From assembly GCF_026151205.1 (NCBI RefSeq), contig NC_087076.1, forward strand, positions 16,389,142 to 16,453,141: DNA of 64,000 nucleotides, read 5' to 3'. The stretch is from Bolinopsis microptera (Eukaryota). The notes under the pieces were generated by a model. It searched no databases. It had not been told where the DNA came from and worked only from the letters and a program-made list of their open reading frames with translations. Shown here piece by piece: positions 4,593-33,982 of the stretch. The stretch's first letter is position 1. Every line of letters begins with the position of its first letter. The translations under genes were made by a program, and so were the position numbers.

Positions 4593-4639
4593 ACAATGAT
4601 TATAGAATGAAATAGTCTGTGATTAACATATTACATACA

Positions 4640-5900: not shown

Positions 5901-6007
5901 ATATTTACCAATATCCTCAAACTTCAATGAACGTGTCCATATACTAGTGGTCAGATCACTTGGCTCCCCCAAGTCTGCCAGCAGGTGTTTCGACGTAAGC
6001 TGAGGGT

Positions 6008-9206: not shown

Positions 9207-10407
9207 ATGAAAACAGGAGACGTGCGACTGATAAATGCTTTTCTTACTGGTTGTGTTTTAGTTATACTGCTTTTCTTTTCCTTCATACAACCTACAAAAG
9301 ACTCTATCGAAGGGGAACATGCCGATGGAATCTACAACCCGCACCAAGATCCTGCTTTTAATCTCAAACTCAACCCAAACAAGAAGTTCATAATCGTATT
9401 GGCAGCATTTCGGAGTGGGTCTACGTTTTTAGGAAATCTGTTCGACAGTAATCCTACGTTGCAGTACATGTTTGAGCCGTTTCACAGTTCTTATATCCGG
9501 AACCTCCGTAGAGACAGGTATCTGCTCGGAGCAAGATCTGACCACACGGAGAGTGACTTGAGGATGTTGTATCTCCAGCAGATGTTACACAACTGTACAG
9601 TCTACCCCACTTTTTTCACCGAAAAATATGCCTATTGTGGTACCAAAGAGGAGAATTTACTTCGCTTCAACTCGACTGAGTGCGAAGGAAGAAAGATACC
9701 CAGATCACACCAAGAGATCTGTAGATACCGGAACACTACCGTGATCAAGGTTATAAGACTAGAGGATCTGTCTGATATCCTGAAAATAGCCCAGATAAGA
9801 TCAGCGAATGTTAAAATCATCCAGCTCCTAAGACACCCTGTGGGACATCAGGACTAAGCTCATGAACAGTAAGAACGAGATCACGGAGAGAAGGACTAAA
9901 ATGGCCTGGGAAGCGTTTAACTACTGTAACAACCATTTGAAGGCTATGGAACTGGTTGAAAGTGATCCTTGGCTGAAAGACAGATACTTGAGAGTCACTC
10001 ATCATGGAATGTCACTTAAACCTCTCGAAGCTGCAGAGAAGGTTTATTCATTTATAGGGGCTACTCTAACCGATGATATTAAAGATTACATTCGAGATAT
10101 AACCGAGGCCAAATCAGAGGGTTTTAAAAATGCACCTAAAGAGGCTTTAAATGTGTACAGGAATTCTACGGACATTGTAACTAAATGGAAGAAACTGGTC
10201 TCGGCCACAGTTAAATATTGGGACGTTTTCTCCATTGAAGCTCAATGTAAACGGATGTTTAAACCGTTGATTGATGAATTTTCTGTTGACACAATACCAG
10301 ACTTACAGCTGTTGAAAATAAACTCCGCATTAGATGAGTTATATGATCAGATTGAAGAAACTGATGAACCTATTTCCATAACCATGATAAATGAATTTAA
10401 TGGATGA
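9207..10407 (+). pseudogene. Carbohydrate sulfotransferase paralog 3, disabled by a 44-bp deletion (frameshift, premature TAA at 9855)
   Basis: ORF 9207-9857 ends RHPVGHQD*. The rest of the protein (TERRTKMAWEAFNYCNNHLKAMELV...) continues in another frame at 9862-10407. Alignment with paralog 1 shows loss of the ccctgatgatgtctagacggactggtggtaagttctttatgtgg segment. Confidence 0.7.
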
Positions 10408-11169
10408 TTATTTGCTCATCACGATCTACTCATTACTGTTTATTTTAATTCGACATTGAATGTCAACTTGAATTAGTTCATGGCCGCCTGGCCAATAACA
10501 TGGATGTTAAATTCATTCAAACGTATATTAATATCATGATATAATAATATTAAAAATTTATTTTAAACTAATAGTAATACAATGATACATTAAACTACTA
10601 CAATGTCAGGATCCCGCATAGTGCATTGGTAGTGTTGACATCATGTCGCTATTATTACCATGAAATCAATCACTTCATCGGGCATCGCGCTAAAAAGCTA
10701 GAAACTAGGATAATCGTAACTGACTTATCATTCAGCATCATAGTGGGCCCAATGCCCATGCTTGTACAGGAGTTGCATCTGCACTCGATATCTGTGTTTT
10801 GGTGACCAACAAGTCATTTGATTACATACATTTTAAGTATTTTGCATAGTAAACTAGCTTGCAAATCCACACTTTCTCTCAAGGTATATTTGTAGCTTAT
10901 TCCATTGTGTAATTTGTATGTAATTGATTGATTCAAAAGATTAAAAAATGTGGGTATTTATATCAATTCTCCTCATTCCACTTACCGCTTTTCATCCTCA
11001 CATAAATTTGTCATGCATCCACTTCCTGGAAGATTTCCACACCCAAGAGGCAGGTAGATCAGCATCTTCATGCTATCCTTTTGTAAGCCCCATAGGTTCA
11101 ACTAAACACTTGTGCCTGTGGGTGGAAGACCGCACTCTGTAACGTGGGGCAATCTTCCATGATGCCGTT

Positions 11170-11546
11170 CTTCTTCTCCCTACTTCGTCCCCCTACTTCT
11201 TCTCCCTACATCTTCTCCCTACATCTTCTTCCTACTTCTTCTCCCTACTTCTTCTCCCTACTTCTTCTCCCTACATCTTCTCCCTACTTCTTCTCCCTAC
11301 TTCTTCTCCCTACTTCTTCTCCCTACTTCTTCTCCCTACTTCTTCTCCCTTCTTCTTCTCCCTACTTCTTCTCCCTACTTCTTCTCACTACTTTTCTCCC
11401 TACTTCTTCTCCCTACTTCTTCTCCCAACTTCTTCTCCTTCTTCTTCTCCCTACTTCTTCTCCCTTCTTCTTCTCCCTACTTCTTCTCACTACTTTTTAT
11501 CCCTACTTCTTCTCCCTACTTCGTCTCCCTACTTTTTCTCCCTACT
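11170..11546. repeat. 15-bp minisatellite (TCTCCCTACTTCTTC)n, ~25 units
   Basis: Direct reading of the sequence. The + ORF 11144-11659 (SPYFFSLLLLPTS repeats) is its translation. Confidence 0.85.
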
Positions 11547-12330
11547 CCAGCAGATGTTACACAACTGTACAGTCTATCTCACTCCATTTCCTGAAAAGTA
11601 CATGTGGTGTGGCACCGAAGAGGAGCATCTACATCGCTTCAATTCGACAAAGTGCGTGAGAAATATGTGGAAGAACGGATTACGGATAGGAGTGTCACAA
11701 CAATAGGAGTGTTCTGGTAGATACCAGAACACTACCGTGATCAAGGTTATAAGACTAAAGGATCTGTCCAGATTATCCAGCTCTCCTAAGAGTAAGACTA
11801 AGACACCCTGTGGCTCTAGACGGACCGATCCAAGAGTCTTCGGTGGACAGTAGGACAACAGAAGAATCTGGCTAAAATGGCTTCGGAGGCTGTAACAACC
11901 ATTTAAAAGCTATAGAAATGGTTGAAGGTGAACCTTGGTTAAAAGACAAATACTTGAGAAACACTCACCATGAAATGTCACTTAAACCTTTTGAAACTGC
12001 GGAGAAAGTTTACTCATTTATCGGAGCTACTCTAACCGATCATATTAAAGAATGCATTTTAAATATAACTGGAGGCGAATCAGAAGGATTTTTAAATCGT
12101 CCCAAACATGCTTTCAATGTTTACAGGAATTCTACGGACATCGTCACAAAATGGAAGAAATTGTTCTCAGTCACCTTTAATACTGGGACGTTTTCTTAAT
12201 TGAAGCTCAATGTAAACGGATGTTTGAACCGTTAATAGGTCATTTTTCCGTTGATACGATACCTGTTTTTTAAAATAAATTCAGCATTAGATGAGTTATA
12301 TGACGAAATTGATTTTGGAAGAAACTGACG
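11547..12330 (+). pseudogene. Degenerate sulfotransferase copy 4 (lacks 5' half; middle and C-terminal segments with frameshifts)
   Basis: LQQMLHNCTVYLTPFPEKYMWCGTEEEHLHRFNSTKCVRNMWKNG starts exactly at the minisatellite end. ORF 11918-12199 encodes EPWLKDKYLRNTHHEMSLKPFETAEKVYSFIGATLTD... The minus ORF 11574-11858 is antisense noise. Confidence 0.6.
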
Positions 12331-13204: not shown

Positions 13205-15760
13205 TTATACAGGATGTTTTTTGATGACTTGCCTTGCAACGCTTGACAGACTAGGACCATTCCCGGATGAAAACTTTGTTACTCCATCACGAATCTTTGT
13301 TCTTTCCTCTTCGACGTTTATGTTCTTGTCCATAAGGATGCAAATCTTTGGTATGAAGATGCTCAAGAGGAAGGCTGTTGAGGTGATAGAGACCACTATG
13401 GCACGCAGGATAGCTTGAATTTTTGGAGGAGAAAAACCGTATCCTGCCAGGAACATGATGGAGCACAACAACACCACAAATGTGGCACAAAATATGTTGA
13501 GGGACTCTCTGAAGTTGTGAGGAAACTTCCTCATCTTGAATGCCAGGACCAAAGTAACGAGAAACGATAGACCAGGCAAAACGATTGGGATTACCAGGGT
13601 CTTGCTATTGATGCTGGTACACCTTAGGTGCCAGGATTTGTGAGGCTCTTTCTGGTACCTTTCAAAGGCCCAGCTGGGTCCACTTCCGGTGTTGCTGTCA
13701 ATGAGAAGGATGATCACTGTTATCGCCAGGGTGAGCAAGTTAAAGGCGGTCTGGCCTGTTCTTTTGAGGAGCAGACCGAACTTTGGCGCCGAAAAACTTT
13801 GAGCAGCAGCAAAAATGTCGTAAACCTTAACACATTTATAAAGCAAGTTGGTAGATATCAAGGTAGCAAAAATTGCAAATGAGTAGTACTCCGCTGAGCA
13901 AGTTGTGGTCGAGGCTTTAAGAAGAGGAGTCAAAGCCGTAGGATACCCGATCAGCAAGCTTAATAGAACCATATAGAGATAGCCGGGGTCAGAAGCTTTG
14001 ATAACTGGCCTATCCTCATTTCTAAAGATTACAACACCGAAGACAATTACCATTGCCATACCAAGCGGCATGCTTGAAGCTCCCACGATAAAGGTTGGTG
14101 AATTCGGCTGAATGTAGATTTCTGGGGCCAAGACACAAGCAGTGTTATTCTCATTAGCTGACATGGAGGGATCACATACTTTGCAAACATTTGTGTCATT
14201 TTCGGTGCTGTATTGGTGAAGATTGCAATCTTCACATGTCCAACAGCAGGGAAGATATTGGATATTCCGATTAAAACGTCGATGGGTGCCTGGCTGGCAG
14301 GTATACGAACACGTTTTGTTGTAGCCTGACATGCTTTCCAGAAGACTTTCGTTCATCACTTCTATTCGGTCAACGAATGCCCTTCCTAGAGTCCTGAAAG
14401 TCTGTGTCTCAGTTTTGTAGACCCCAATCCTGTAGCCAGTGTTGACTGTCTTGTTGAACATCCTGATGGGTATTGTTACATTTTCTTCCAGAGTAACATT
14501 CAACGTTCGATTCTCATTCACGATTTGGTTGAACAGCTTTGTTTTGTAGTCCATTAAACATCGAGTTCCACCAGGTAAAACAGGTACTACCATATTTGTA
14601 AGAATGGCATGAAGAGATTCTAAAACCAACTTAACTCCTCCGACCATGTAAGGAATCCAGCTGGTCAGTTTGCACATCTTTGGCTCATCTCCATCTTTTG
14701 GACATCTGTAACTTTGTACCTTCTGATAGAGGTCGTCGATATAGTCTCTCTTTTTAACCTGTCTCCAATCTTTGTTTACATCTTTTAACGTTTGGTCCAT
14801 TTTGACATTGAGGAGATCTGGTAGTGGAAGTATGAGGGTGTTGTGTCCAGAGGTATTTAGGATTGCTGTATAGCCATCTAGGAAACGGTATCGTCCGTTT
14901 GATAATCCGAGTATGTAGATCTTATCTCGGAATCCTAGATTTCCGACCATCTCTTTTAGCATTGCTCTGGTTGTTGATCTAGAATTTTGAAGAATAAGTT
15001 GAACCCGCGAAGGGGTCCCGCCAGTTTCATTGTAGGTTTGTTTTATCCTTGGAATGTGATCTTTGGATGTGACATCAGTTATTCGTCCACATCCTACCTT
15101 TTTGACGTAGCTGTTGAATATGTGCTCGGCCATATCTTTAGAATATTCGTGATACCAAATGTCCATATATTGATAACCCATCTTTTCTAAGAATCGAATA
15201 GTTATTTCTGCTTCTTTGACTTCCGTGTCTATCATGGAAAATAGATTTGGATACATGCTACCTGTCATCAACTCATCATCATTGAACATATACACGAATG
15301 TGGGAATGTGGAATGATGACATGATAGCAGCAGATCTTTTGGTGTATTCTTTATTGTCGACTCCAGAAACTCCTATGACCTTCTTGTTGCTAGCAAGTGC
15401 AGCAGAGATTCTTCCTGTGACAGCTGAACTCATGCAAGTGTCATACATCTCGTATCCCAGGGTCTTGTTGAAATCCTTTTTAAATCTTTCATTTTCTTTG
15501 TCTATTACCATCCTAAGGGCGATGGCCTTCTGGATGCCATATTCCTCAATCCCAGAGTAAGAACAACTTTGAACTGGGATTTTAGTGCCGTCATCATCGT
15601 CTGTGTACTCGAGCTGGCCTATCTGGAACATTCCTCCGATGATGAAGTCTCCGTCTTTTGCAGCAATGGGGGTATCAAGATACCGTACCTGACAAACTCC
15701 CTCATCCTCACCAGCTACTCCTGGTAAAGTGAGCACCAGGAGGACAAATATTGCAAACAT
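13205..15760 (-). CDS. Class C (family 3) GPCR, intronless, copy 1: signal peptide, Venus-flytrap/ANF-receptor-like ectodomain, 9-cysteine domain, 7TM
   Basis: The listed 925-aa ORF carries a non-coding N-terminal read-through; the homologous start is MFAIFVLLVLTLPGVAG at 15760. The Cys-rich block CSYTCQPGTHRRFNRNIQYLPCCWTCEDCNLHQY..VCKVCD..TAC has 9 Cys including the CCWxC motif. There are seven hydrophobic helices, with a TM3 Cys and the TM7 motif FIPKICILM (class C PKxY-like). AATAAA signals lie 250-350 bp below the stop. Confidence 0.8.
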   Translation of the reverse strand: MFAIFVLLVLTLPGVAGEDEGVCQVRYLDTPIAAKDGDFIIGGMFQIGQLEYTDDDDGTKIPVQSCSYSGIEEYGIQKAIALRMVIDKENERFKKDFNKTLGYEMYDTCMSSAVTGRISAALASNKKVIGVSGVDNKEYTKRSAAIMSSFHIPTFVYMFNDDELMTGSMYPNLFSMIDTEVKEAEITIRFLEKMGYQYMDIWYHEYSKDMAEHIFNSYVKKVGCGRITDVTSKDHIPRIKQTYNETGGTPSRVQLILQNSRSTTRAMLKEMVGNLGFRDKIYILGLSNGRYRFLDGYTAILNTSGHNTLILPLPDLLNVKMDQTLKDVNKDWRQVKKRDYIDDLYQKVQSYRCPKDGDEPKMCKLTSWIPYMVGGVKLVLESLHAILTNMVVPVLPGGTRCLMDYKTKLFNQIVNENRTLNVTLEENVTIPIRMFNKTVNTGYRIGVYKTETQTFRTLGRAFVDRIEVMNESLLESMSGYNKTCSYTCQPGTHRRFNRNIQYLPCCWTCEDCNLHQYSTENDTNVCKVCDPSMSANENNTACVLAPEIYIQPNSPTFIVGASSMPLGMAMVIVFGVVIFRNEDRPVIKASDPGYLYMVLLSLLIGYPTALTPLLKASTTTCSAEYYSFAIFATLISTNLLYKCVKVYDIFAAAQSFSAPKFGLLLKRTGQTAFNLLTLAITVIILLIDSNTGSGPSWAFERYQKEPHKSWHLRCTSINSKTLVIPIVLPGLSFLVTLVLAFKMRKFPHNFRESLNIFCATFVVLLCSIMFLAGYGFSPPKIQAILRAIVVSITSTAFLLSIFIPKICILMDKNINVEEERTKIRDGVTKFSSGNGPSLSSVARQVIKKHPV

Positions 15761-15952
15761 TACACAATTTCGTACAATTGATATGTCATAAACATTCACC
15801 TCAACAGTCTCCCGATATCTACTATAATTGTTCTGATATTCTACGGAACCACGACATGGACAATAGAAGTATAAATGTACTATAGTTCGACAGAAAATTG
15901 CGATTGTTTGGTTATTAGGATCCTTTATCCTTCTTTTATCATACCAGTGAAG

Positions 15953-16040
15953 AAGATGTGGAAACACGGAGTGTAACAACAAGAGATCTGTAGATATCGG
16001 GACACTACCGTGATCAAGGTTATAAGACTAGAGGATCTAG
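15953..16040 (+). pseudogene. Sulfotransferase internal fragment (WKHGV.QQEICRYRDTTVIKVIRLEDL) abutting the 5' flank of GPCR copy 1
   Basis: Nucleotide identity to paralog 1 positions ~1420-1500. The same breakpoint fragment recurs at 21791-22005 and 11640-11760. Confidence 0.5.
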
Positions 16041-18840: not shown

Positions 18841-21411
18841 TTATACAGGATGTTTTTTGATGACTTGCCTTGCAACGCCTGACAGACTAGGACCATTCCC
18901 GGATGAAAACTTTGTTACTCCATCACGAATCTTTGTTCTTTCCTCTTCGACGTTTATGTTCTTGTCCATAAGGATGCAAATCTTTGGTATGAAGATGCTC
19001 AAGAGGAAGGCTGTTGAGGTGATAGAGACCACTATGGCACGCAGCATAGCTTGGATTTTTGGAGGAGAAAAACCGTAGCCTGCCAGGAACATGATGGAGC
19101 ACAACAACACCACAAATGTGGCACAAAATATGTTGAGGGACTCTCTGAAGTTGTGAGGAAACTTCCTCATCTTGAATGCCAGGACCAAAGTAACGAGGAA
19201 CGATAGACCAGGCAAAACGATTGGGATTACCAGGGTCTTGCTATTGATGCTGGTACACCTTAAGTGCCATGATTTGTGAGACTCTTCCTGGTACCTTTCA
19301 AATGCCCAGCTGGGTCCACGTCCGGTGTTGCTGTCAATGAGAAGAATGATGACTGTTATCGCCAGGGTGAGCAAGTTGAAGGCGGTCTGGCCTGTTCTTT
19401 TGAGGAGCAGACCGAACTTTGGCGCCGAAAAACTTTGAGCAGCAGCAAAAATATCGTAAACCTTAACACACTTATAAAGCAAGTTGGTAGATATTAAGGT
19501 AGCAAAAATTGCAAATGAGTAGTACTCCGCTGAGCAAGTTGTGGTCGAGGCTTTAAAAAGAGGAGTCAAAGCCGTAGGATACCCGATCAGCAAGCTAAGT
19601 AGAACCATATAGAGATAGCCGGGATCAGAAGCTTTGATAACTGGCCTATCCTCGTTTCTAAAGATTACAACACCAAAGACAATTACCATTGCCATACCAA
19701 GTGGCATGCTTGAAGCTCCCACGATAAAGGTTGGTGAATTCGGCTGAATGTAGATTTCTGGGGCCAAGACACAAGCAGTGTTATTCTCATTGGCTGACAT
19801 GGAGGGATCACATACTTTGCAAACATTTGTGTCATTTTCGGTGCTGTATTGGTGAAGATTGCAATCTTCACAGGTCCAACAGCAGGGAAGATATTGGATA
19901 TTCCGATTAAAACGTCGATGGGTGCCTGGCTGGCAGGTATACGAACACGTTTTGTTGTAGCCTGACATGCTTTCCAGAAGACTTTCGTTCATCACTTCTA
20001 TTCGGTCAACGAATGCCCTTCCTAGAGTCCTGAAAGTCTGTGTCTCAGTTTTGTAGACCCCAATCCTGTAGCCAGTGTTGACTGTCTTGTTGAACATCCT
20101 GATGGGTATTGTTACATTTTCTTCCAGAGTAACATTCAACGTTCGATTCTCATTCACGATTTGGTTGAACAGCTTTGTTTTGTAGTCCATTAAACATCGA
20201 GTTCCGCCTGGTAAAACAGGTACTACCATATTTGTAAGAATGGCATGAAGAGATTCTAAAACCAACTTAACTCCTCCGACCATGTAAGGAATCCAGCTGG
20301 TCAATTTGCACATCTTTGGCTCATCTCCATCTTTTGGACATCTGTAACTTTGTACCTTCTGATAGAGGTCGTCGATATAGTCTCTCTTTTTAACCTGTCT
20401 CCAATCTTTGTTTAAATCTTTTAACGTTTGGTCCATTTTAACATTGAGGAGATCTGGTAGTGGAAGTATGAGGGTGTTGTGTCCAGAGGTATTTAGGATT
20501 GCTGTATAGCGATTTAGGAAACTGTATCGTCCGTTGGATAATCCAAGTATGTAAATCTTATCTCGGAATCCTAGATTTCCGACCATCTCTTTTAGCATTG
20601 CTCTGGTTGTTGCTGCAGAATTTTGAAGAATAAGTTGAACCCGCGAAGGGGTCCCGCCAGTTTCATTGTAGGTTTGTTTTATCCTTGGAATGTGATCTTT
20701 GGATGTGACATCAGTTATTCGTCCACATCCTACCTTTTTGACGTAGCTGTTGAATATGTGCTCGGCCATATCTTTAGAATATTCGTGATACCAAATGTCC
20801 ATATATTGATAACCCATCTTTTCTAAGAATCGAATAGTTATTTCTGCTTCTTTGACTTCCGTGTCTATCATGGAAAATAGATTTGGATACATGCTACCTG
20901 TCATCAACTCATCATCATTGAACATATACACGAATGTGGGAATGTGGAATGATGACATGATAGCAGCAGATCTTTTGGTGTATTCTTTATAGTCGACTCC
21001 AGAAACTCCTATGACCTTCTTGTTGCTAGCAAGTGCAGCAGAGATTCTTCCTGTGACAGCTGAACTCATGCAAGTGCCATACATCTCGTATCCCAGGGTC
21101 TTGTTGAAATCCTTTTTAAATCTTTCATTTTCTTTGTCTATTACCATCCTAAGGGCGATGGCCTTCTGGATGCCATATTCCTCAATCCCAGAGTAAGAAC
21201 AACTTTGAACTGGGATTTTAGTGCCGTCATCATCGTCTGTGTACTCGAGCTGGCCTATCTGGAACATTCCTCCAATGATGAAGTCTCCGTCTTTTGCAGC
21301 AATGGGGGTATCAAGATACCGTACCTGACAAACTCCCTCATCCTCACCAGCTACTCCTGGTAAAGTGAGCACCAGGAGAAAAAATATTGCAAACATTACA
21401 CAATTTTGCAC
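18841..21411 (-). CDS. Class C GPCR, intronless, copy 2 (856 aa; ~99% identical to copy 1)
   Basis: Intact ORF with the same domain order and motifs as copy 1. The start MQNCVMFAIFF allows an alternative start at the second Met. The 3' flank 18290-18840 and 5' flank 21412-21790 are also near-identical to those of copy 1. Confidence 0.85.
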   Translation of the reverse strand: MQNCVMFAIFFLLVLTLPGVAGEDEGVCQVRYLDTPIAAKDGDFIIGGMFQIGQLEYTDDDDGTKIPVQSCSYSGIEEYGIQKAIALRMVIDKENERFKKDFNKTLGYEMYGTCMSSAVTGRISAALASNKKVIGVSGVDYKEYTKRSAAIMSSFHIPTFVYMFNDDELMTGSMYPNLFSMIDTEVKEAEITIRFLEKMGYQYMDIWYHEYSKDMAEHIFNSYVKKVGCGRITDVTSKDHIPRIKQTYNETGGTPSRVQLILQNSAATTRAMLKEMVGNLGFRDKIYILGLSNGRYSFLNRYTAILNTSGHNTLILPLPDLLNVKMDQTLKDLNKDWRQVKKRDYIDDLYQKVQSYRCPKDGDEPKMCKLTSWIPYMVGGVKLVLESLHAILTNMVVPVLPGGTRCLMDYKTKLFNQIVNENRTLNVTLEENVTIPIRMFNKTVNTGYRIGVYKTETQTFRTLGRAFVDRIEVMNESLLESMSGYNKTCSYTCQPGTHRRFNRNIQYLPCCWTCEDCNLHQYSTENDTNVCKVCDPSMSANENNTACVLAPEIYIQPNSPTFIVGASSMPLGMAMVIVFGVVIFRNEDRPVIKASDPGYLYMVLLSLLIGYPTALTPLFKASTTTCSAEYYSFAIFATLISTNLLYKCVKVYDIFAAAQSFSAPKFGLLLKRTGQTAFNLLTLAITVIILLIDSNTGRGPSWAFERYQEESHKSWHLRCTSINSKTLVIPIVLPGLSFLVTLVLAFKMRKFPHNFRESLNIFCATFVVLLCSIMFLAGYGFSPPKIQAMLRAIVVSITSTAFLLSIFIPKICILMDKNINVEEERTKIRDGVTKFSSGNGPSLSGVARQVIKKHPV

Positions 21412-21514
21412 ATTTGATATGTCCTAAACATTCACCTCAACCATCAACAGTCTCCCGATCTCTACCATTGTTTTGCTATTCTACGAAACCTTGACATGGA
21501 TAAAAATTGCAATT

Positions 21515-21536
21515 GATAACCAATTGTTTGGTTATC
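21515..21536. promoter_or_regulatory. Perfect palindrome GATAACCAATTGTTTGGTTATC ~100 bp upstream of GPCR copy 2 start
   Basis: Recurs at 45451-45472, 8 bp upstream of the GPCR copy 3 ATG. Half-site copies (TTGCGATTGTTTGGTTATTAGGATCC) lie at 15895, 21740 and 45650. Confidence 0.25.
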
Positions 21537-21790
21537 AGGATCCTTTATTCTTCTATTATCACACATCCATCTGTTTCTTTCTTTGCGATTTAAAATTGAA
21601 ATCATGAGATTCTGCGGAATGACAGGCTGAGCGCCGCCCAGTAATATTGGTACACGTTCGACACATACTACTACTATAGTTCGACACGTCTAATACCACT
21701 GTTCTTTAGTCACGAAACGTGGACATTGGCAAAAATTGCGATTGTTTGGTTATTAGGATCCTTTATTCTTCTTTTATCACATCAACCACT

Positions 21791-22005
21791 GCGTGAGGAA
21801 GGTGTGGAAACACGTAGTGTTGCAACAAGAGATCTGTAGATACCGGAACACTATCATGATCAAGGTTATAAGACTAGAGGATCTGTCTGATATCTAAAAA
21901 ATAACCCAGATAAGATCAGCATGCAAATATCCAAATTATCCAGCTCCTAATAGTAAGACACCCTGTGGCTCTGGTGATGTTTAGACGGACCGATCCAAAA
22001 GTTGT
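21791..22005 (+). pseudogene. Sulfotransferase internal fragment abutting 5' flank of GPCR copy 2
   Basis: ..VRKVWKHVVLQQEICRYRNTIMIKVIRLEDLSDI..QLLIVRHPVALVMFRRTDPKVV.. with stops; homologous to paralog 1/2 codons ~180-260. Confidence 0.5.
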
Positions 22006-22073
22006 TCCAAATGCTCTAAAATCGGCACGGGTTGTCCCGATACACAAAGGTGGCTCTAAAACAGAAGTAACTA

Positions 22074-22402
22074 ATTTGACCAAAACCCATAATCATGGGT
22101 AGAGTGTACCGCTGCCAGTGTCTCTCTTTTCCAAACAAAAGGAAATGATATTAATTTGAATAACCGTCCGCAAATGCAAATTGATACCGAGAATGAAATC
22201 GGTCGCTCGCTTTTTCCAATCAATAAGCTTTATTACAATTCGTAAGCCGTAATCGAATGGAAAAAGCGAGCGACCGATTTCATTCTCGGTATCAATTTGC
22301 ATTTGCGGACGGTTATTCAAATTAATATCATTTCCTTTTGTTTGGAAAAGAGAGACACTGGCAGCGGTACACTCTACCCATGATTATGGGTTTTGGTCAA
22401 AT
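22074..22402. repeat. Large perfect palindrome / foldback: two 145-bp arms (22074-22218, 22258-22402) around a 39-bp loop
   Basis: The right arm is the exact reverse complement of the left arm. Both carry the internal sub-palindrome CCCATAATCATGGG. Confidence 0.85.
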
Positions 22403-22862
22403 ATCATCTCTTTTTGATTAAAATGTCAGGATAATTTACAAAGCCGAAATGTAAACTCATAACTTCATTAATATTTATATTAATAATTAGGAGGTAATTT
22501 CATCGATTTCGAAATTTTACCTGACTGAATATGGCACTTTTTACTCATTCAAGTTGGCATTAAATTCATATATAATTCCATTTAAATATCGCGGGAAAGC
22601 AGAATTTATTCGAAATCGTGATCACGAATGAGCAAAATTCTCACCTTTCGCACGTGCAAACTTTGAGCGGACTTTGCGTGCGCATACAATATTGAATCAC
22701 CGTAAATTTTTGCATATCAGTATTTTATATATAATTTAATAAGCAAGCAAAGTTTCAGAAGATTTCATATAGAACTTGGATCACAACGGGACTCCAAAGT
22801 TGATAAAAATGGTGAAAACAGCAATTTTCAGTAATTTTAGCAATTTTCTATCAATTTGGGCG

Positions 22863-23804
22863 TGTCCCTAATAAAAGGCTCTTTTCCTTTATATTTTGTT
22901 CAGCAAGGTGACAAGGGAAAGTACTTCAATTTGAATAAACCGTTAAGAATTGTAATTACAATATCTCAGTGTTCCTCAAATACTATGTCAATAATTCGAA
23001 TAGCATAGTTCTTTAACTATAAACATTAACGGTAAACGTCTGCTGTATTCAAACCAAAAAGTGTCCTGCCATCCAACAGGCCCACTCTTAAATATCCTTA
23101 GATAGTATAAACAATCTCCCACTCGTTTTAGCAATCCCTAAACAAATCCCAAACTATCCTTCCTATAGCCAAAACAGAGATGTAAAATTGAACTCTCTGA
23201 TAACCAAAACAGAGATGTTAAAATAAACTTTCTGTTTCCCTAAAATTTTCTGCCCTTAACAATATCTTTAACTATCCTCCTATAGCCAAAATAGAGTTGT
23301 TAAACTGAACTCTTTGATAACCAAAACAGAGATGTTAAAATAAACTTTCTGTTTCCCTAAAACTCTCTGCACTACCCTGCTGTACTAAATGTCGTACACT
23401 AATAAATGCCCTAAAATACTACGGTAAAATACTGTTTAATGTCTAGTACTAAAACTGCTAAAACGAGTATATAACATCCCCACGTGTGCAACTTTTCGAT
23501 TTTCAACTTTAAAACTAGCCTATAACACAATTTAGACCTTTAGAAAGCACAATCGAGCTCCACAACTCAAGGGATGGCCCAACACCAGAGAATACTAATT
23601 CACAACTTTTGTATTTTTATAAAATTATTCTTCAAAAAAGCACTAACTTCAATAGCAAATATCTTTATGAAGGAGCAAGGTAGGAAAATTTTCCGGTAGA
23701 TTTTCAGAATGCTTGAACAATTATCTAAGGTGAAAATGTCCTCAGATTTTGAATAAAATTACTCCTTAATGGTTTAAAATCGATTTGAAAAGTTGTTATT
23801 TTGT
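22863..23804. repeat. LTR (3' LTR if element is minus-oriented)
   Basis: See parent element; this is the downstream copy of the direct-repeat pair (3' LTR if the element is minus-oriented). Confidence 0.55.
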
Positions 23805-24280
23805 AAAATACTACGGTAAAATACTGTTTAATGTCTAGTACTAAAACTGCTAAAACGAGTATATAACATATCCTCCCCACAAAATTTTGTGGAAGTTCTC
23901 CCGTTGCAATTGCAATGGATAACTTTACAAATTCTAATATATATCAAATCTACCTACAAAGTGTTTTTTAAAACCCACATAAACTTGAAAAAAAAATGTG
24001 TCTCTCTTGCTATTAAAACTGGCACCAAAGCTGCCCAAAATCAATGTCATCACCAAGTTGAAAATAACCATGTTCTAATTGATGTCAAGATTAGTATTAC
24101 TTTAAGTAAAGTGTTGTTATGATTCAAACAAGGTTGTTCTCTTCAAATCCCTGATACCGTGATTTTACTGTAAATACTTTAACAAAATACCATTGTGCAC
24201 AAATTATCAAATATATAACGCAAATTACCGTTCCAGTCTATATGACTTTAATTTAGTCATTTCCGACATTTCTCCTCTGA

Positions 24281-25150
24281 TTAAACATACTTCGGTTTAT
24301 TCTTTCTCGGTCTGAGTCCATACTTTCTCCTCGGATCTCTGCCGTCTTCTTCACGACTTATGTCAGCAAGAGTAAGTCCTCTACTATCTATTTCTCCGAA
24401 TTGCATATTTCCCTCTCTGCTCGGTCCAGCAGTTGCAGCCGCTACTTCCGGACTAGAGTCAATGTTTTGAGATTGACTTGAATCTAGTGCATCGTGAAAA
24501 GATTCGGTGGTATCTGCACTTAGATTTAATTGTGGATCTTCTTCCTGACGCGGTACATCGTTGAGCGATGAGTTTACTATCGTGTCATCCAATCCTCGTT
24601 CCTCCTCTTCCACCACAATGGCCGGATCTCCGCTCCCAACTTCAGTTTGTGGTACATCATTTCCAGAACTTGTGAGATTCACTGGTGCTGACGCTTTTCC
24701 TCCACTTTTACTGATCTTAGATGAGGGACAAGGAATTCCTTGATCCCTCTTCTTCTTCCGACTTCTCGTGATGATGTGATAATCATCTGAATCATCTGAA
24801 TCACTATCAGTGACCAGGCTCACTTCACTCATGTTGCCTTCACTTTCCCCGGAACAACCGTTGGGAAATCCCACAGCCGCTCCAGGAACCTTGGTGAGTG
24901 GTTCTCCCCCTTTATAAGGTTTCATCTTCGTGATGCTGGCTTGTATCACGTTGCGACCCCCACGGTTGCGACCCCCACGGTCGTTTCGTCCTGACGATAC
25001 AGGGGGAGCCGCGCACTCCGTGCGCGGCGGGTCATACAACGTATGACAAATGCTGGCCACATTCTTCTCCTGTCCCACCTGTATTTCCATTGTACTGTCG
25101 GTTGAATTCTCCACCGGATCCTCTTCTCCTCCAGCAGTTAGCTCGTACAT
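24281..25150 (-). CDS. Second ORF downstream of gag: acidic/Ser-rich 289-aa protein with basic patch (TRSRKKKRD), unknown function
   Basis: Open frame lying between gag and the downstream direct repeat; low complexity; no recognisable protease/RT/integrase motifs. Confidence 0.3.
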   Translation of the reverse strand: MYELTAGGEEDPVENSTDSTMEIQVGQEKNVASICHTLYDPPRTECAAPPVSSGRNDRGGRNRGGRNVIQASITKMKPYKGGEPLTKVPGAAVGFPNGCSGESEGNMSEVSLVTDSDSDDSDDYHIITRSRKKKRDQGIPCPSSKISKSGGKASAPVNLTSSGNDVPQTEVGSGDPAIVVEEEERGLDDTIVNSSLNDVPRQEEDPQLNLSADTTESFHDALDSSQSQNIDSSPEVAAATAGPSREGNMQFGEIDSRGLTLADISREEDGRDPRRKYGLRPRKNKPKYV

Positions 25151-25235
25151 GTCCGGTCTTGTTGCAATTCCAGCACGTTATGTTCTTGTAACTCCATCCC
25201 CCGTCTCGTTCTCTATTGTGTACTGATCTGGGTCT

Positions 25236-26174
25236 CTAGTTTCTGCTCCTTCCTCGCCATTTGTCCCGATTCTCACCGGACCAAGATCTCGATCTGCCAT
25301 CCCCCGTAGGTCTCTGATAAGTAGTTTCTTCTCGCTCCTCCCGACTATTTTGCCTCGAAAATGAGGGGTAGTGAATGGTTGGCTTGTCAGAAAATGCCGT
25401 TTGTTTCATAATCGAAGAAACAGGAATTTCTCTATCGTTCTCATTCATCATCTTCTCAACGCCTTCTATTTTCTCTGCCAATTTCACTGCTTCCTCAAAT
25501 GAAGCAAAGCTAGCTACATTGAGCTGCTGTATCATATTTTTGCTCCTCACTCCTCGTAAAAGAGCCAAAAGACAATTGTCTTCCGCCACTGTTACATCCA
25601 AGTAAGCTACATTCGACTTCGCCCTCAATCGAAAAACGTACTCACCTATATCTTCTCCTTGCCGCTGACGACAGTTAAGCAGTTCGTTCTTAAGTGCGGT
25701 AGCTTCGTTGCCATAGATGGCTCGCTTGTAGAGCGTACAAAAAAGCTCAGGATCTTTTCTCTCCCTATCACTCAGTTTGACTGCCCTCAGTACCGAATAG
25801 GTTTTGTCGTCCACACTTTGGAGCAAGTGCTCATACAGTAATGGACTCTTCATCCTGGTTATTCTCACGTATGAGAGAAATCTCTCACAGAACATGGAAA
25901 AATCTTCTCCTTTTTCAAACGTCTTCAATTTAGCTGCTCGGGATAATTTTGAATTAAAAATTTTCCCTGATCCGTCATGATCATTTTCACTCTCGTTATC
26001 CTCCAAATCCGAATCGCCCGCTTCGAATAACTCTTTTTTAATCTTTTTCTCCTGCACTTTTAGCTCTTCCAGCGTGGTTCTGATTTTCTCTCGTTCAGCT
26101 TTGATTTTCTCCAACTCCTCTTTCGCTTCAGCCGCTGCTGCAGCTTGTTCTTCCTTGTCACTGCCAATAGTCAT
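25236..26174 (-). CDS. Retrotransposon Gag-like capsid protein (Ty3/gypsy-type Retrotrans_gag fold), 312 aa
   Basis: An N-terminal coiled coil (EELEKIKAEREKIRTTLEELKVQEKKIKKEL) is followed by the core FEKGEDFSMFCERFLSYV...LYEHLLQSV...LLNCRQRQGEDIGEYVFRLRAK. This fits the F.G..F..W...L.Q.g.SV.EY..RF pattern of LTR-retrotransposon Gag. Confidence 0.6.
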   Translation of the reverse strand: MTIGSDKEEQAAAAAEAKEELEKIKAEREKIRTTLEELKVQEKKIKKELFEAGDSDLEDNESENDHDGSGKIFNSKLSRAAKLKTFEKGEDFSMFCERFLSYVRITRMKSPLLYEHLLQSVDDKTYSVLRAVKLSDRERKDPELFCTLYKRAIYGNEATALKNELLNCRQRQGEDIGEYVFRLRAKSNVAYLDVTVAEDNCLLALLRGVRSKNMIQQLNVASFASFEEAVKLAEKIEGVEKMMNENDREIPVSSIMKQTAFSDKPTIHYPSFSRQNSREEREETTYQRPTGDGRSRSWSGENRDKWRGRSRN

Positions 26175-26229
26175 CTATGCTCAAATCACTTCGAGGGTAT
26201 TAACCAATTGATTAATCAGGCTCCAGTTG

Positions 26230-27164
26230 ATAAAAGGCTCTTTTCCTTTATATTTTGTTCAGCAAGGTGACAAGGGAAAGTACTTCAATTTGAATAAACC
26301 GTTAAGAATTGTAATTACAATATCTCAGTGTTCCTCAAATACTATGTCAATAATTCGAATAGCATAGTTCTTTAACTATAAACATTAACGGTAAACGTCT
26401 GCTGTATTCAAACCAAAAAGTGTCCTGCCATCCAACAGGCCCACTCTTAAATATCCTTAGATAGTATAAACAATCTCCCACTCGTTTTAGCAATCCCTAA
26501 ACAAATCCCAAACTATCCTTCCTATAGCCAAAACAGAGATGTAAAATTGAACTCTCTGATAACCAAAACAGAGATGTTAAAATAAACTTTCTGTTTCCCT
26601 AAAATTTTCTGCCCTTAACAATATCTTTAACTATCCTCCTATAGCCAAAATAGAGTTGTTAAACTGAACTCTTTGATAACCAAAACAGAGATGTTAAAAT
26701 AAACTTTCTGTTTCCCTAAAACTCTCTGCACTACCCTGCTGTACTAAATGTCGTACACTAATAAATGCCCTAAAATACTACGGTAAAATACTGTTTAATG
26801 TCTAGTACTAAAACTGCTAAAACGAGTATATAACATCCCCACGTGTGCAACTTTTCGATTTTCAACTTTAAAACTAGCCTATAACACAATTTAGACCTTT
26901 AGAAAGCACAATCGAGCTCCACAACTCAAGGGATGGCCCAACACCAGAGAATACTAATTCACAACTTTTGTATTTTTATAAAATTATTCTTCAAAAAAGC
27001 ACTAACTTCAATAGCAAATATCTTTATGAAGGAGCAAGGTAGGAAAATTTTCCGGTAGATTTTCAGAATGCTTGAACAATTATCTAAGGTGAAAATGTCC
27101 TCAGATTTTGAATAAAATTACTCCTTAATGGTTTAAAATCGATTTGAAAAGTTGTTATTTTGTT
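26230..27164. repeat. LTR (5' LTR if element is minus-oriented)
   Basis: See parent element; this is the upstream copy of the direct-repeat pair (5' LTR if the element is minus-oriented). Confidence 0.55.
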
Positions 27165-27699
27165 AAAAACCAAGTTTTAAAAACACTTAACTTGATGACG
27201 TCATCAAGTGATGATGATGACGTTAAATTATTTTGTAATATAATGGAAACTGGAGTGTAAACGATTATCTTCAAGACCTGTGGTTCGAAATGACTGTATC
27301 TTTTATACTTTTGAATCTACGGACACTTAAATGTAGGCTATAATTGACTGCAAAAGCGTCTATACATACATATATATATATATAATATATATATATACTT
27401 CACGACAATCTGTTGTAAAACAGGGGTTCCAGAAAACCCACTTCCCGATACTCCTGAAACATGAAATTTTTTTTACAGTCGATTTGGACAAGGTCTAGAC
27501 GCCCTGCAAAGTTTCATATCTCTAACTCAATTTTAACATGGTTTTTAAGGCACCTGAATATGGCGATTTTGGGTTTTTTACCTAATTTCGTATAACATGC
27601 TGGCGCGTATTTTGCGCAAATTTCTTAAAAACCTCCACATAACTATTTCTTATTCCTGTCATCTTTAACATTGAATTAGAATGTTTTGAACTCAAATAT

Positions 27700-29300
27700 G
27701 CCTGCTGAACTACTTTCGATGAGTCTTAATGCCTGGAAAACAATAAAGGGGATATACTAGTATAGGGGGTAAATAGTATTGTGAATATAAGGGCGACGGT
27801 AATGCTTGCCAGCATTGTGATTACAGACCAATCTCTTTGCTAAGCTCTTTCTCGAAAATATACGAAAAACTTATGCATAGTCGAGTTCTTGAATTTTTAG
27901 ACTTCAATGGATCACTTTTTGAAAGTCAGTACAGTTTTAGGCCTGGCATGTCATGTGAACACGCTTTACTTAATGCTCAAAATAGTATTCTACACTCTCT
28001 CAACAGTAAGCAAATTGCTGTGCTGCTTCTTCTTGACTACTCTAAAGCTTTTGACGTTATTGAACATCCTATACTACTAAAAAAACTGGAACATTACGGC
28101 ATTAAAGGTTCAGCACTAAAATGGTTCGAGTCCTATCTGAGCGGCCGCCACCAATTCGTGACTGTCGGTGGAGAAGACTCGAGGCCCAGAGAAATCCAGT
28201 TTGGAGTACCCCAGGGGTCGATTTTGGGACCATTACTCTTTGTGATCTATATCAACGACCTTCCAAACATCACAAATTTAGCTAAGTTTATACTGTACGC
28301 AGACGATGCGAATATCATAGTTACTGGTTACACCGAGCAAGAGGTTCAGTTCAAACTAAATCAAATAACCTCGCTCCTGATCAAATGGGTTGATAGCAAC
28401 GGACTTGCTCTCAATCTCAAAAAACTCACTTTATGGTATTTAGCAATCATAGAACGACAACCCTTTCTAACATTAATGTTTCCATAGCTGGAGTAGTGAT
28501 AGATCAAGTGACTGAGGCACGTTTCCTCGGAGTAATAATCGATGATAAATTAACGTGGAGCAAACACATACATGCCGTTAGGGCCAGGATGAATAGATAC
28601 ATGGGTATCATGTACAAAATTAAACGGCACTTACCGTTAAAAGTCCGGCTTCAAATTTATCACAGCTTTGTTCAATCCCACCTCAATTTCTGCTCCCTCG
28701 TCTGGGGTTTCGCAGCCAAATCACACATTGAGTCACTATTCACAAAACAGAAACAAGGTGTGAGAATGGTTATGCCAGGTTACGTCAACTATTTCTACAA
28801 GGACGGCCAATTGCCTGCACACACGGGGGATAGCTTTAAAGAGTATGGAATTCTCACTATTCATGGAATTATCGTGAAGAACGCACTTATATTAATGCAC
28901 AGGATGTAATACTTCCCTGAAACAGTGCCAAAATCAATCAAAGGCCTTTTTCCAAGTAATATCCCTTCAGTTAACTCCAGCCATGAGACTAGCTCTGACT
29001 GGCTTCTTACATACGGTAGTAACACTTTTAGACAATCAGTATTTTTTAAAGGTCCACTGCTTGCCATCACTGAAACAAACTTAAATATAACTTGTCTTCC
29101 CAGCTTATTTTCAATAAACATTTACAAGTCTAATGCAAAACGTGTGCTATTGGAACACCAATCAAGAGGCAACAACGAGGAAAGCTGGCAAACCTTTTTA
29201 CTGAATTTTTTTATTGAAATCTTTCAAATCGATCAATTACATACAAATTTACACAATGAATAAACAACATTAAATTTTCTCAAAAGTATAGGACTCCGAT
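27700..29300 (+). mobile_element. 5'-truncated CR1/L2-like non-LTR retrotransposon (RT domain and C-terminal tail), same family as element at 36499-41444
   Basis: 27790 encodes KGDGNACQHCDYRPISLLS. ORFs 27837-28487 and 28433-28909 carry the RT motifs FDVIEHPILLKKLEHYGIKGSALKWFESYLSGR..FGVPQGSILGPLLF..YADD. There is one frameshift and a C-terminal ..FFKGPLL tail. Confidence 0.6.
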
Positions 29301-29940: not shown

Positions 29941-32659
29941 CTATGGCATAATCTTAAGCTGTCTGCATTTTTGAATGTATGTGGATGGTGGATAACTCAT
30001 ATACTCCTCGTGAAGAATCCACTTAATAGCACGCTTTTGGAGGCACTCCAGCTTGCTTATCTGGGATTTTGTGACTGGTCTCCATATAACTGAGCAATGC
30101 TCAAATTGACTTCTCATTAAAGTGAGATACAGTACTCTACGACGATTTACATCTTGAACAAAATAGCAATTTCTCCTTGCCATGCCTAATTTTTGGTTGG
30201 CCTTTGAAAGGACTTTAGAGCACTGGTCTTGCCAGTCGAGATTCTTGGTCACAAAAACACCCAGATCCTTTTCATGATCGACATAGTCAAGTGCGATTCT
30301 TCCCATGGAGTATACAAAGTTAAATAGTGGTAGGACACTAAGAAGGGAAACTGTTTCGGATATCCTTCCTGCGACGGTGAGGACCTTACATTTGTCGGGA
30401 TGAAATCTCATTTTATTAGAAAGTGACCAGTCATGGAGATAATCAATGTCCTTCTGCAGTCGCAGGATATCAGACTCCGAAACAATCTCACGCCAAATTT
30501 TAGTATCATCGGCATACAGTGACAGTTGTGTGCCTGGTGAAATCCCCACTGATATATCATCAATGAACATAATGAACAACAAAGGTCCCAAAATTGACCC
30601 TTGTGGTACACCAGACTGGGCGTTTCTCATAGAAGAAAACTTACCACTTATCAAGACCTGTTGTTGCCTGTCTCTTAGATGATCAGTGATGAATTTCAGT
30701 AGCCTCCCATCAATACCAAATTTGCTCTTTAGCTTAAATAATATAAGATCATGGTTAACCGAGTCAAAAGCTTTGGCAAAATCAAAGTAGACTACATCTG
30801 TTCTCATATTTTCATTCAGTGAGAGAGCTAGGCTGTCACATAGACCTACAAGATTAGTTGCACATGATCTTTCAGCTCGAAAACCGTGTTGTTTATCGTC
30901 GATCATGCCGTTAGTAAGTGCAAGTAACTCATCTTTTATTATGCGTTCAAGAACTTTGGTGATTAAGCATGTAAGGGATATTGGCCTATAATTTGAAACC
31001 TCATGTTTATCACCTTTTTTATATATGGGTACAACGTGTCCCAGTTTCCACTCCCTAGGTAGTAGGTAATGTCCCAATGTTGTAACATGAATATAATAAT
31101 AGTGATAATGGGTATGCAAGCCCAACAGCACAGTTTTTCAAAAGTTTCCCATGAATACCATCAGGCCCATAAGCTTTGTTAGGGTCAATATTGGAAAGGA
31201 TTTTGCGGACCCTTTGGTGGTCAAATGCAATATCAAAGCGCCAATCGTTTGAATAATCAATATCTATGTCGTTTAATGATGCTTCAGAGAACTGCTCGAA
31301 GAAAAAGCCATTAAATAAGTTGGCCTGGTCCTCTGGGCAGTTGCGGACAATGCCTTTGTAGCTTACAAACTCAGGAATTCTTTGACTAGCTGTTTTTGAT
31401 TTTACATATGACCAGAATTTTTTTGTTACAAGAGCGCTATCATCTGATTCATTTAATGTTTCTCGCATATTTTGAGCAACCACATTTTTTAAGTTTTTCC
31501 TGGCGAGGGAGAACGCTATTTGGGCTCTATCGCTTTTATGTCTATCTTTATGCAGTCTTATTTTCTTGCGCCATGCATCATAGCACTCTGAGTCAAACCA
31601 TGGATATTGTCCATCTGTCTTAACTGAGCATTTCTTGATGAATTTGTCAGTGATATTGAAAAGTTTTTTCTTAAATTTTTTCCACCCAATTTCAGGTTCT
31701 GTGCCATTAAGCAATGCCTTCCAGTCTGTGTGCCGGAGTTCATGGTTTAGCCACTCCCAGTTCACGTTTTTATAGTTATAGCACATACGCTTAACCGGCT
31801 TCTTCCTATTTACCTTAATGTTGATCTTAAAGTTGATTGGAAAATGATCAGACTTACAGACGCTATCTCGCTCACCTACCATTAGGTCACTGATATTAGA
31901 CTCAGAGTTTGTGAGCAAAAGGTCCAGTGTTTAGCCTTTGCAATGGGTGGGTGTAAGTACACATTGCCGAAGGCCAAGGTCTACAAAAGATTCAACAAAA
32001 ATCTGCTCAATAGGACAGGAGCCGGCCAAGGTAGACCAGGAGACTCCAGTCAGGTTGAAATCTCCCAGGATGAATACTTTGCTTAGCCCTCTTCTCCGAA
32101 GAAGAGTTTTCAGAGATCCAAGAATTTTTTCATGATTTGCAAAGCCCAGTGTACCAACACGATAACATGTACAGATAACAAATTTAATGCCCGTTGATGT
32201 TGTAAACTCCACAGCAAGAATTTCTGCCCCCTCTTTAAGTCGGATTTCTTTCGAGGATAATTGAAGGTCTGCTCTCACAGCAATCATGACCCCGCCACCA
32301 TTTCTCCTAAACCGGGTCGGATTAGAGGGATCAGGTGGATGAGTTCTCTTAGATCTGTCAGAGCGAAATATCTTATATCTATCAGGGTGCAGGAATTCGC
32401 TATCAGCTATGGAGTTTTTAAACCATGTTTCGTTAAGTATTGCAATATCTATATTTGCCTCATTAAGATAAGTTGAAAGACATTTGGTGATATCAAGCAT
32501 TGGGTGGGCATTATTAAGCTCACCGAAGGGAATAAGGCCTTGAACATTCTGAAAGTAAACATTCAATACCTTACTATTCCCCAACCTAATATCTATAGGA
32601 GGGGGTCCTGGGTTTACGATTCCAGGATTTACAAAAATTATCAAAATACCATTCAACAA
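29941..32659 (-). CDS. ORF2 (APE-type endonuclease 31931-32659; RT 29941-31918), frameshifted
   Basis: Endonuclease: NVQGL..LNETW..VFILGDFNL. RT: YRPISLTCL..FRAERSCATNL..YFDFAKAFDSVNHD..SGVPQGSILGPLLF..YADD. Confidence 0.65.
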
Positions 32660-33208
32660 TCAACAAGAACAACCAAATTATGCATCCAGTTAGTGCAATA
32701 CCAGCTCTACCAGTAGATAAAAAGTTTAAATTCCTATAGATTGTAACATGGCAGAAATTGTAAAGGCCATCGAAACTATAATCATTCCGGAAATAATACA
32801 TATTTGCTAAGTGTAGAAGGAAATATACAGTAAAATATCGGCACAAGTTAGGCACTGGATATGTTGGTACAAAGGCTCGGCAATCATATGTGACTCTAGA
32901 AAAAGCCAACCCACTAACCCCCGCACTAGTGATGATGATGAGTGAGAAATGGCATATCAATAAAACATAGAATATATATAAAAAGAAGCTAGGATCAATG
33001 CAGCTGTCTAAAATGTCAAAGATACTACCTGTACCACGTCTACGGTTCTGATGTTTAATGGCTCTTGCAAAAGCATTTCCACTGAACACTCCAACTCTAA
33101 ATCTATATGTTACTAAATCGATCATGGTAATTTACAGGTAAGTATACTTGCCAGACTACATCTGCATATAACTAGCTATACAAGGTCCATAATACAGCTC
33201 AGGTTAAA

Positions 33209-33982
33209 CTATTGATATACGTAGGGATTAAAATATCTACTGTGTATGGCACGAATATAAGACCTAGCCAACACCCCCATTCCTTTCTGAGGATTAGGGT
33301 GAATACCATTGCTCTCAAATAACGGGTCAAATCGCCTAACAGGTTCCTTATAAGTTCTCTTGAATTTAGTGAAGGGATAAAAGACATCCATAAAGAAGAA
33401 CCTCCTGAATACACACTCATTAAATAAAATCCTATTAAAGTCTATTATCCTCTTGTTAGTTAATCTATCATCATCAGACGTTAAGGGTAATGGCAATAAA
33501 GATTGAACATAAACCTTGCAATTAGGAAATAATTGGCATATCTTACTAAAGAGTTGCTTCAGAGGCCCTCTAACTGTGCCTACATCGTCTACCCGTCTAA
33601 TATCGTTCGTACCAACACTAATTAAAAGTTTATCAACCTGAACATCGGGATGTGCAGCAGAATAGTCCTCAAGCTGCTTCTGGACCTTGTCCATCTTTGC
33701 TCCACCTTGTGCAACATTCTCGACTTTGACTTTCCCTTTTCCCAGCTTGTCCGAGTCCAATCTCTGAGCAAAAGAGTCTCCAGCAACCAACGTGACTTTC
33801 TGCACAGGTTCTTTGACTTTAATGCCACAAGCAGGTGTACTAGTCTTACTGGCGCTGTTGGTTTCAGAGCTGGCCTGGCTACCAGTTTTCACGATTGCGC
33901 GAAAAGACAGGGAGTATCGCACTTGGTCTTGACCATCCCCCTTCGTAGTTCGTACCTGTAGCCGGCTCTGCACGCACCGCAT
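33209..33982 (-). CDS. ORF1 C-terminal SGNH/GDSL-type esterase domain of the CR1-like element
   Basis: Block I VTLVAGDSFAQRL (GDS), block III ISVGTNDI, block V ESNGIHPNP (D..H). The esterase ORF1 is as described for some CR1/L2-clade elements. It lies ~550 bp upstream of the endonuclease start. Confidence 0.55.
   Translation of the reverse strand: MRCVQSRLQVRTTKGDGQDQVRYSLSFRAIVKTGSQASSETNSASKTSTPACGIKVKEPVQKVTLVAGDSFAQRLDSDKLGKGKVKVENVAQGGAKMDKVQKQLEDYSAAHPDVQVDKLLISVGTNDIRRVDDVGTVRGPLKQLFSKICQLFPNCKVYVQSLLPLPLTSDDDRLTNKRIIDFNRILFNECVFRRFFFMDVFYPFTKFKRTYKEPVRRFDPLFESNGIHPNPQKGMGVLARSYIRAIHSRYFNPYVYQ

Follow-up and report, generated by a model that had tools for sequence, protein, structure and literature searches.

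A perfect palindrome beside a receptor gene cluster of Bolinopsis microptera as the probable foldback terminus of a non-autonomous mobile element

The palindrome and its genomic setting

The DNA analysed here, referred to as the window, is a stretch of 64 kb from Bolinopsis microptera that contains three intronless class-C mGluR-like GPCR paralogues (13205-15982, 18841-21411 and 42873-45443; DNA identity ~94-95%) and further includes a sulfotransferase gene array, several LINEs and satellite arrays. The second of these receptors has an intronless class-C ORF of 851 aa on the minus strand (18841-21396) with the domains 7tm_3, NCD3G and ANF_receptor, and it is 100% identical to a B. microptera protein named "metabotropic glutamate receptor 4-like" at NCBI. 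Two of the three paralogues sit in a ~5.6-kb tandem repeat. One full copy and fragments are found in L001, an ENA long-read contig from a related ctenophore (~6-7% diverged in alignable DNA). Short-period tandem arrays are located at 53851-54354, 11126-11585, 60252-60596 and 4037-4699, with units of 12, 13, 15 and 111 nt. The sulfotransferase array also holds a perfect 41-nt inverted repeat (3566-3606 and 5903-5943, 2.3 kb apart), which may represent the ends of another element.

The palindrome (PAL; 22074-22402, 329 bp) was described in the first-pass annotation as perfect, with a 39-bp loop, and as lying next to a GPCR and a sulfotransferase fragment. Both descriptions are accurate: the two arms are complementary at 145 of 145 positions around a centre of 39 nt, and the neighbours are the class-C receptor ORF just mentioned and the pseudogene fragment listed in Table 1. 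If two mismatches are tolerated, the arms stretch to 151 nt (22074-22224 and 22252-22402, 99%). This is the sole inverted repeat of such quality in the 64-kb window, the runner-up being 151 nt long at 77%. As single-stranded DNA, PAL is predicted to fold at -188 kcal/mol, against -33 +/- 4 for shuffled sequences (z = -37.6), and the left arm includes a mini-hairpin, CCCAT-AATC-ATGGG, that starts 11 nt in from the end.

Within the 64-kb window no second copy of the arm was found besides a 37-nt relic (2940-2976), part of a decayed single-arm feature in the sulfotransferase array. Its orthologue in L001 (20705-20830) is 77% identical to the arm across 128 nt; present at orthologous sites in the sulfotransferase arrays of both species, the relic marks an old, half-deleted copy.

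Table 1. Coordinates of the palindrome, of the element to which it belongs and of the surrounding host features (positions in the window)
Feature	Position	Strand	Remarks
Decayed single-arm relic of the PAL family	2940-2990		In the sulfotransferase array
Sulfotransferase pseudogene fragment	21790-21991	+	Ends ...RHPVALVMFRRT; frame picks up again at ~35856
5' part of the 5'-truncated non-LTR RT ORF, target of U	21992-22073	+	Translates to DPKVVPNALKSARVVPIHKGGSKTEVT
PAL left arm, outer terminus of element U	22074-22218		Begins (A)TTTGACCAAAACCC
PAL centre	22219-22257		39 nt; right ~30 nt match the left end of the L001 spacer, reverse complement
PAL right arm	22258-22402		Abuts the block of U, GGTCAAAT being followed by ATCATCTC
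U block part 1, non-coding	22403-22868	+	Homologous to L001 8192-8663 and to metagenome contigs
LTR-like insertion nested within U	22869-26835	-	TSD TCCC (4-bp); 941-nt direct repeats, 99.8%
U block part 2	26836-27821	+	Homologous to L001 8660-9627; right terminus ...AATGCT-TGCC-AGCATT-GTGA(T)
Same RT ORF, continued	27822-28487	+	YRPISLLSSFSKIYEKLMH...; RVT_1 E = 3e-30; LINE runs on 3'

Element U and its insertion into a LINE

The sulfotransferase fragment to the left of PAL stops at ~21991 because a 5'-truncated LINE starts there. Its frame restarts far to the right as GGTVGMWDN... (~35856-36475) and matches an intact paralogue (...MSRRTGGKAFMWDD...), and the pseudogene is, by this reconstruction, split by 13.9 kb of nested TEs. 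Among the TEs that split it is a second LINE (29941-34711, minus strand) with GDSL-esterase, endonuclease and RT domains.

The 66 nt to the left of PAL belong to the RT ORF of the truncated LINE, which can be reconstituted to the nucleotide. When 21990-22075 is joined to the sequence from 27822 onward, a single open RT frame is obtained (...SKTEVTN/YRPISLL..., where the slash marks the join), and the joined protein aligns without gaps across the junction to the RT of the LINE at 29941-31131 (VVPIYKKGDKHEVSNYRPISL...; 37% identity, E = 5e-44). Since the RT ORF is whole across this junction, 22074-27821 is read as a clean insertion into the LINE. The host sequence before the insertion would have been ACTAATTACAG, with a single AT at the target, and AT now stands at both edges. 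A Tc1/mariner type of insertion with TA duplication was considered and rejected: it would leave ...ACT ACA GAC..., which breaks the NYRPIS motif, and the host must therefore have had the sequence given above. As reconstructed from the reading frame, the insertion is shown to have taken place at an AT dinucleotide (A/T) within the RT ORF, with no longer target site duplication (TSD).

The inserted unit, here called U, consists of PAL followed by a non-coding block of 1.45 kb (22403-22868 and 26836-27821), for a total of ~1.9 kb before it was hit by the LTR-like insertion. The latter is specific to this genome, every other copy of the block reading uninterrupted from the position equivalent to 22868 to that of 26836; it is later than U and no part of the palindrome element. 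The final 335 nt of each of its direct repeats duplicate the next 335 nt of the host element itself, and its two minus-strand ORFs (24281-25150 and 25236-26174) have no Pfam match. The two ends of U are unlike: the left one begins TTTGACCAAAACCC..., and the right one carries a small hairpin followed by GTGA (...GCCAGCAYTGTGA). No ORF with homology support was found in U, which has no coding capacity, and neither a transposase ORF nor a Rep/helicase ORF or partner was found in U or elsewhere in the 64-kb window.

Other copies, junctions and polymorphism

A copy of U is present in L001 (7691-9628); its arms measure 154 nt, with 99% complementarity, and enclose a 193-nt spacer. It lies upstream of a GPCR in the orientation opposite to that in the window, and both of its flanks are unrelated to those of the window copy; at the window position orthologous to the L001 site (~45750-45800) U is absent. 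When marine metagenome contigs were scanned with a 29-nt core of the arm, 12 were retrieved, and the junction of PAL with the block is present in nine of these. The arm/block junction, GGTCAAAT followed by ATCATCTC, recurs in L001, L004, L006-L008 and L011-L015. Most of these extra copies are short-read contigs, in which the orientation of the spacer is unresolvable, chimeras are possible and differences between arms may be blurred; the long-read assemblies among the copies are those of the window and of L001.

The outer PAL terminus is found in 6-7 different flanks, and the right terminus of U in five. In one contig (L005) the outer terminus adjoins a gamma-glutamyl hydrolase gene that is unrelated to the cluster; contigs of only ~1.2 kb were found for this locus, and the top B. 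microptera protein is 76% identical to its hydrolase. All 11 distinct junctions have an A to the left of the element and a T to its right, with no longer duplication, an arrangement in which insertion between A and T without a TSD is indistinguishable, from the sequence alone, from a 2-bp AT duplication. At a second position (site 2), a (TA)n tract within the block (window ~27363-27397), PAL is also found by itself. This site is filled in L009 and L014, carries a 15-nt terminal relic (TATTTGACCAAAACC) in L008, and is empty in the window, L001, L004 and L013. By these junctions PAL is shown to terminate a mobile unit that is non-coding and has AT as its integration target.

The right flank of L013 equals positions 1-128 of L001 at 99.2%, and L013 is therefore a second U copy of the same species, at a distance of ~8 kb from the L001 copy. 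In ctenophore GPCR loci from three ENA assemblies (L002, L003 and L017-L019; 106 kb) neither PAL nor the block was found. The first-pass annotation had considered that dozens of identical copies might point to an ordinary foldback transposon, and these loci give no evidence of such abundance: with one copy in the 64-kb window and none in the 106 kb, the copy number of U looks low.

In the window, the centre is a flipped and internally deleted version of the 193-nt spacer of L001, with a loss of ~150 nt; one metagenome contig (L007) has a variant of 69 nt; and across copies the arms range from 145 to 154 nt and the spacer from 39 to 193 nt. A flip of the spacer between L004 and L008 was left out of the evidence, as the orientation of a spacer enclosed by 154-nt arms is beyond the resolution of short-read graphs.

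Several contigs recovered along with these copies call for separate mention. The 1465 nt of L009 are chimeric, with 232 nt of ctenophore sequence (flank and arm) fused to AT-rich sequence that bears a 256-aa ORF. This ORF, located after the arm, was considered as a transposase and rejected: it has no Pfam domain, and its relatives are found in phage-like contigs that also carry an integrase and a DEAD helicase. The one viral contig (L016) in which a scan with the 19-nt terminus gave a hit is a chance match, in that the similarity goes no further. The truncated second arms seen in L006 and L011 have different breakpoints into different sequences and are probable misassemblies. Inward of the arm, positions 1-4433 of L012 contain no ORF above 93 aa and show no similarity to the other copies. 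In L014 (1-1957) an inversion affects the last ~450 nt of the block, a second palindrome terminus comes next, and both breakpoints coincide with element termini; the arrangement suggests an inversion mediated by transposon ends, uncertain as it comes from a short-read contig.

These copies bear on two accounts in which the palindrome would owe nothing to mobility. The first is that PAL is an assembly or library artefact, for example a palindromic long read of chimeric origin. The B. microptera assembly was indeed built from PacBio reads with wtdbg2 and polished (PMC10232365), and the form with a 39-nt spacer is found in this assembly only. The inverted repeat itself, however, is present in the independent long-read assembly and in ~10 short-read metagenome contigs; the same termini and block junction recur in L001 and in contigs from several metagenomes, L007 holds the 69-nt-spacer variant, and PAL is contig-internal within a coherent structure of nested TEs. 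The suspicion of an artefact, raised in the first-pass annotation, is contradicted by these findings, and it keeps next to no probability.

The second account makes PAL a non-mobile local inverted duplication, or a rearrangement scar of the GPCR/sulfotransferase cluster, which spread by segmental duplication only. It derives some appeal from the position of the copies, which lie mostly in or near the cluster (those of the window and L001, that of L010 near an L003-like GPCR locus, that of L013 8 kb off, and the relic in the array). Nevertheless, both edges of U restore the intact RT ORF to the nucleotide, homology among copies halts exactly at the termini in the 11 junctions, and the L005 copy stands beside an unrelated gene. 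Moreover, the cassette boundary 70 bp away, from which the scar had been proposed, is the 5' junction of the LINE (~21991) and therefore not a scar of PAL. The left edge of the palindrome is a clean insertion junction in the RT ORF, which refutes a scar at the cassette boundary, and the wider version of this account is very improbable. PAL is thus to be read neither as a rearrangement scar nor as an assembly error.

The preferred reading, to which a probability of about 75% is assigned, is that ctenophores of the Bolinopsis lineage carry a non-autonomous mobile element with PAL as its foldback terminus, the mobile unit in the window being U. The first-pass annotation had listed a foldback (MITE-like) transposon among its three candidates, and this one comes nearest. 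The sharp ends in unrelated flanks and the filled, empty and relic states of the same site agree with that proposal; in the window, however, PAL is not free-standing but forms the left end of a ~1.9-kb element whose two ends are unlike.

Concerted arms and affinities of the element

Between the window and L001, the 145-nt core of the arm differs by nine substitutions and one 2-nt indel, each of which has its mirror image in the other arm, and arm-specific differences in this core number zero in the window and zero in L001. Independent evolution of the arms would predict ~9 differences in each element, and the probability of observing none is ~1e-4 for each of the two long-read copies. The arms of the two species are 93.7% identical over the 145-nt core and 92.7% over the full 154-nt arm. 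The core value equals that of the GPCR and syntenic DNA (93.6-93.7%) and exceeds that of the block (86.7-89.5%), the arms diverging about half as fast as the neighbouring block. A similar picture emerges from the metagenome contigs L006, L011, L013 and L015, in which the block-adjacent arm has 0 of 154 positions different from L001, whereas block part 1 differs by 7-8% and the spacer by 2-5.5%. From the mirrored changes and from identical arms attached to diverged blocks it follows that homogenisation or selective retention acts on the arms, within single copies as well as from one copy to another. The differences between lineages are common to both arms, which is the pattern that arm-to-arm gene conversion would leave in the sequences. 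It had been argued from the perfection of the palindrome that it must be of recent origin or actively maintained; the argument holds, and the comparative data point to maintenance. PAL can be viewed as a compact case of concerted palindrome-arm evolution, within an element and between copies ~8 kb apart. Concerted arms and a spacer whose orientation varies between genomes are also features of primate sex-chromosome palindromes and plastid inverted repeats, which unlike PAL are three orders of magnitude larger, gene-bearing and immobile.

Paired arms might instead be kept by selection on RNA, if PAL were a functional hairpin-RNA locus that is transcribed (e.g., by read-through from the LINE or the GPCR) and diced to endo-siRNAs. 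The perfect 145-bp stem, the pairing of all inter-species changes and the slower divergence of the arms relative to the adjoining block would all suit this explanation. In the ctenophore Mnemiopsis, furthermore, the small-RNA pool consists mainly of endo-siRNAs, there are no miRNAs, and the unique endo-siRNA clusters are structured (PMC6211395). PAL shares a long perfect stem, a Dicer substrate if transcribed, with such clusters and with the hpRNAs of Drosophila, and differs from them in being mobile, in having no identifiable target gene and in being known here from its sequence and predicted fold. An Rfam scan of 21500-23000 at permissive E-values gave only sub-threshold hits, miRNA- or sRNA-shaped and equal on both strands, as with any perfect hairpin, and the arm has no homology to any possible target gene in the window. 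Sharp ends in unrelated flanks and presence/absence polymorphism are traits of a mobile element and not of a conserved gene, and the 7% difference between the arms of the two species matches that of neutral-looking synteny. A dedicated hairpin-RNA locus is accordingly improbable, if less so than a scar. As a by-product, PAL could still produce siRNAs: if transcribed, it would offer a phylum that lacks miRNAs a ready-made hairpin for endo-siRNAs.

As to the affinities of a mobile PAL, foldback elements are the nearest comparison. Members of this family (Drosophila FB, Galileo, palindromic MITEs) are associated with local inversions and deletions, as PAL also seems to be. As in foldback or long-TIR elements, PAL consists mostly of two long inverted arms that surround a short variable spacer and is non-coding, it has discrete ends that are the same in differing flanks and at filled and empty sites, and its arms are better conserved than the interior. 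PAL and U differ from them in the lack of a 7-9-bp target duplication and in a seemingly low copy number, and in the window U has a foldback at one end only, the other end being unrelated. With regard to the target, just AT is shared (an A/T split or a 2-bp duplication), and a duplication of 3-9 bp is absent.

A second comparison is with Helitrons, whose canonical hallmarks are insertion between A and T without duplication, a 5'-TC, a 3'-CTRR and a 16-20-nt hairpin ~11 nt from the 3' end (PMC4067079). U resembles them in its position between a host A and T (in 11 of 11 junctions, with one site verified by the ORF), which is indistinguishable from a 2-bp AT TSD, in ends without terminal inverted repeats, in being non-coding and in having seemingly been extended by taking in neighbouring sequence. 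The correspondence of the termini depends on the strand. Read on the plus strand, the 5' terminus is TT, and a 16-nt hairpin stands 4 nt short of the end; one of its pairs shows a compensatory change between the window and L001. The minus-strand reading gives TCACAATGCTGG, i.e., TC, as the 5' terminus and places a 14-nt hairpin (CCCATGATTATGGG) 11 nt from the 3' end; every arm variant retains this 14-nt hairpin in spite of a 2-nt indel. Unlike a Helitron, U has no CTRR on either strand and ends in ...TTGTGA (plus) or ...GGTCAAA (minus); in addition, the terminal hairpin region is duplicated in PAL into a perfect palindrome of 145-154 bp, and the standard model does not predict a mobilised unit made of the palindrome only, such as PAL alone.

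Among non-autonomous elements of the foldback or Helitron-like kind, PAL/U is an unusual variant whose arms evolve in concert. In the mechanism proposed for it, PAL would act as a cis-acting end that needs to fold. Mismatches between the arms would be corrected whenever transposition, replication or break repair leaves PAL single-stranded or extrudes it as a cruciform, and propagation may be restricted to copies with matched arms (transpositional selection). The arms would consequently co-evolve within an element and between the copies of one genome, and the spacer and block would drift; the spacer would be able to flip and shrink, as in the window copy with its loss of ~150 nt. The nature of the enzyme is the most speculative step: a rolling-circle (Helitron-like) transposase is put forward tentatively, as a possibility with the odds against it. 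Under such a rolling-circle scheme, U would owe its origin to read-through from PAL, or from a Helitron-like block, into the adjoining sequence. A bolder and still less likely idea is that PAL is the origin or terminator of an undescribed lineage of ctenophore Helitron-like elements, in which the ~16-nt 3' hairpin region was duplicated into a 150-bp foldback that is proof-read when single-stranded. If this were true, foldback proof-reading would yield species-specific concerted evolution of the arms, and the PAL hairpin could also feed the endo-siRNA pathway.

The value of these results lies mainly in clean-up, in that a striking, "fragile" palindrome beside a receptor cluster turns out to be a probable transposon end, within a LINE that is in turn within a pseudogene. 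Ctenophore transposons are poorly catalogued, and U falls outside the usual superfamilies on account of its unlike ends, its A/T target without a longer duplication and its one-ended foldback.

Two minor observations concern small inverted repeats in the window. A MITE-like element at 45822-46195 has perfect 25-nt TIRs (GGGGGGGGGGTACCAATGGCATAAA) and a run of ~60 C at its right end; a 7-bp direct repeat, GTTAGAT, stands on either side of it, and the element is missing at the orthologous position of L001. The right end of U carries an 18-nt inverted repeat (TATAACAGTGCTGGCGAG and CTTGCCAGCACTGTGATA) with ~190 nt between its halves, located at 27597-27611 and 27801-27815 in the window and at 9397-9414 and 9611-9628 in L001. 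Its motif CAGTGCTGGC is reminiscent of the ends of Tc1-type transposons, and the right terminus of U may derive from a small MITE.
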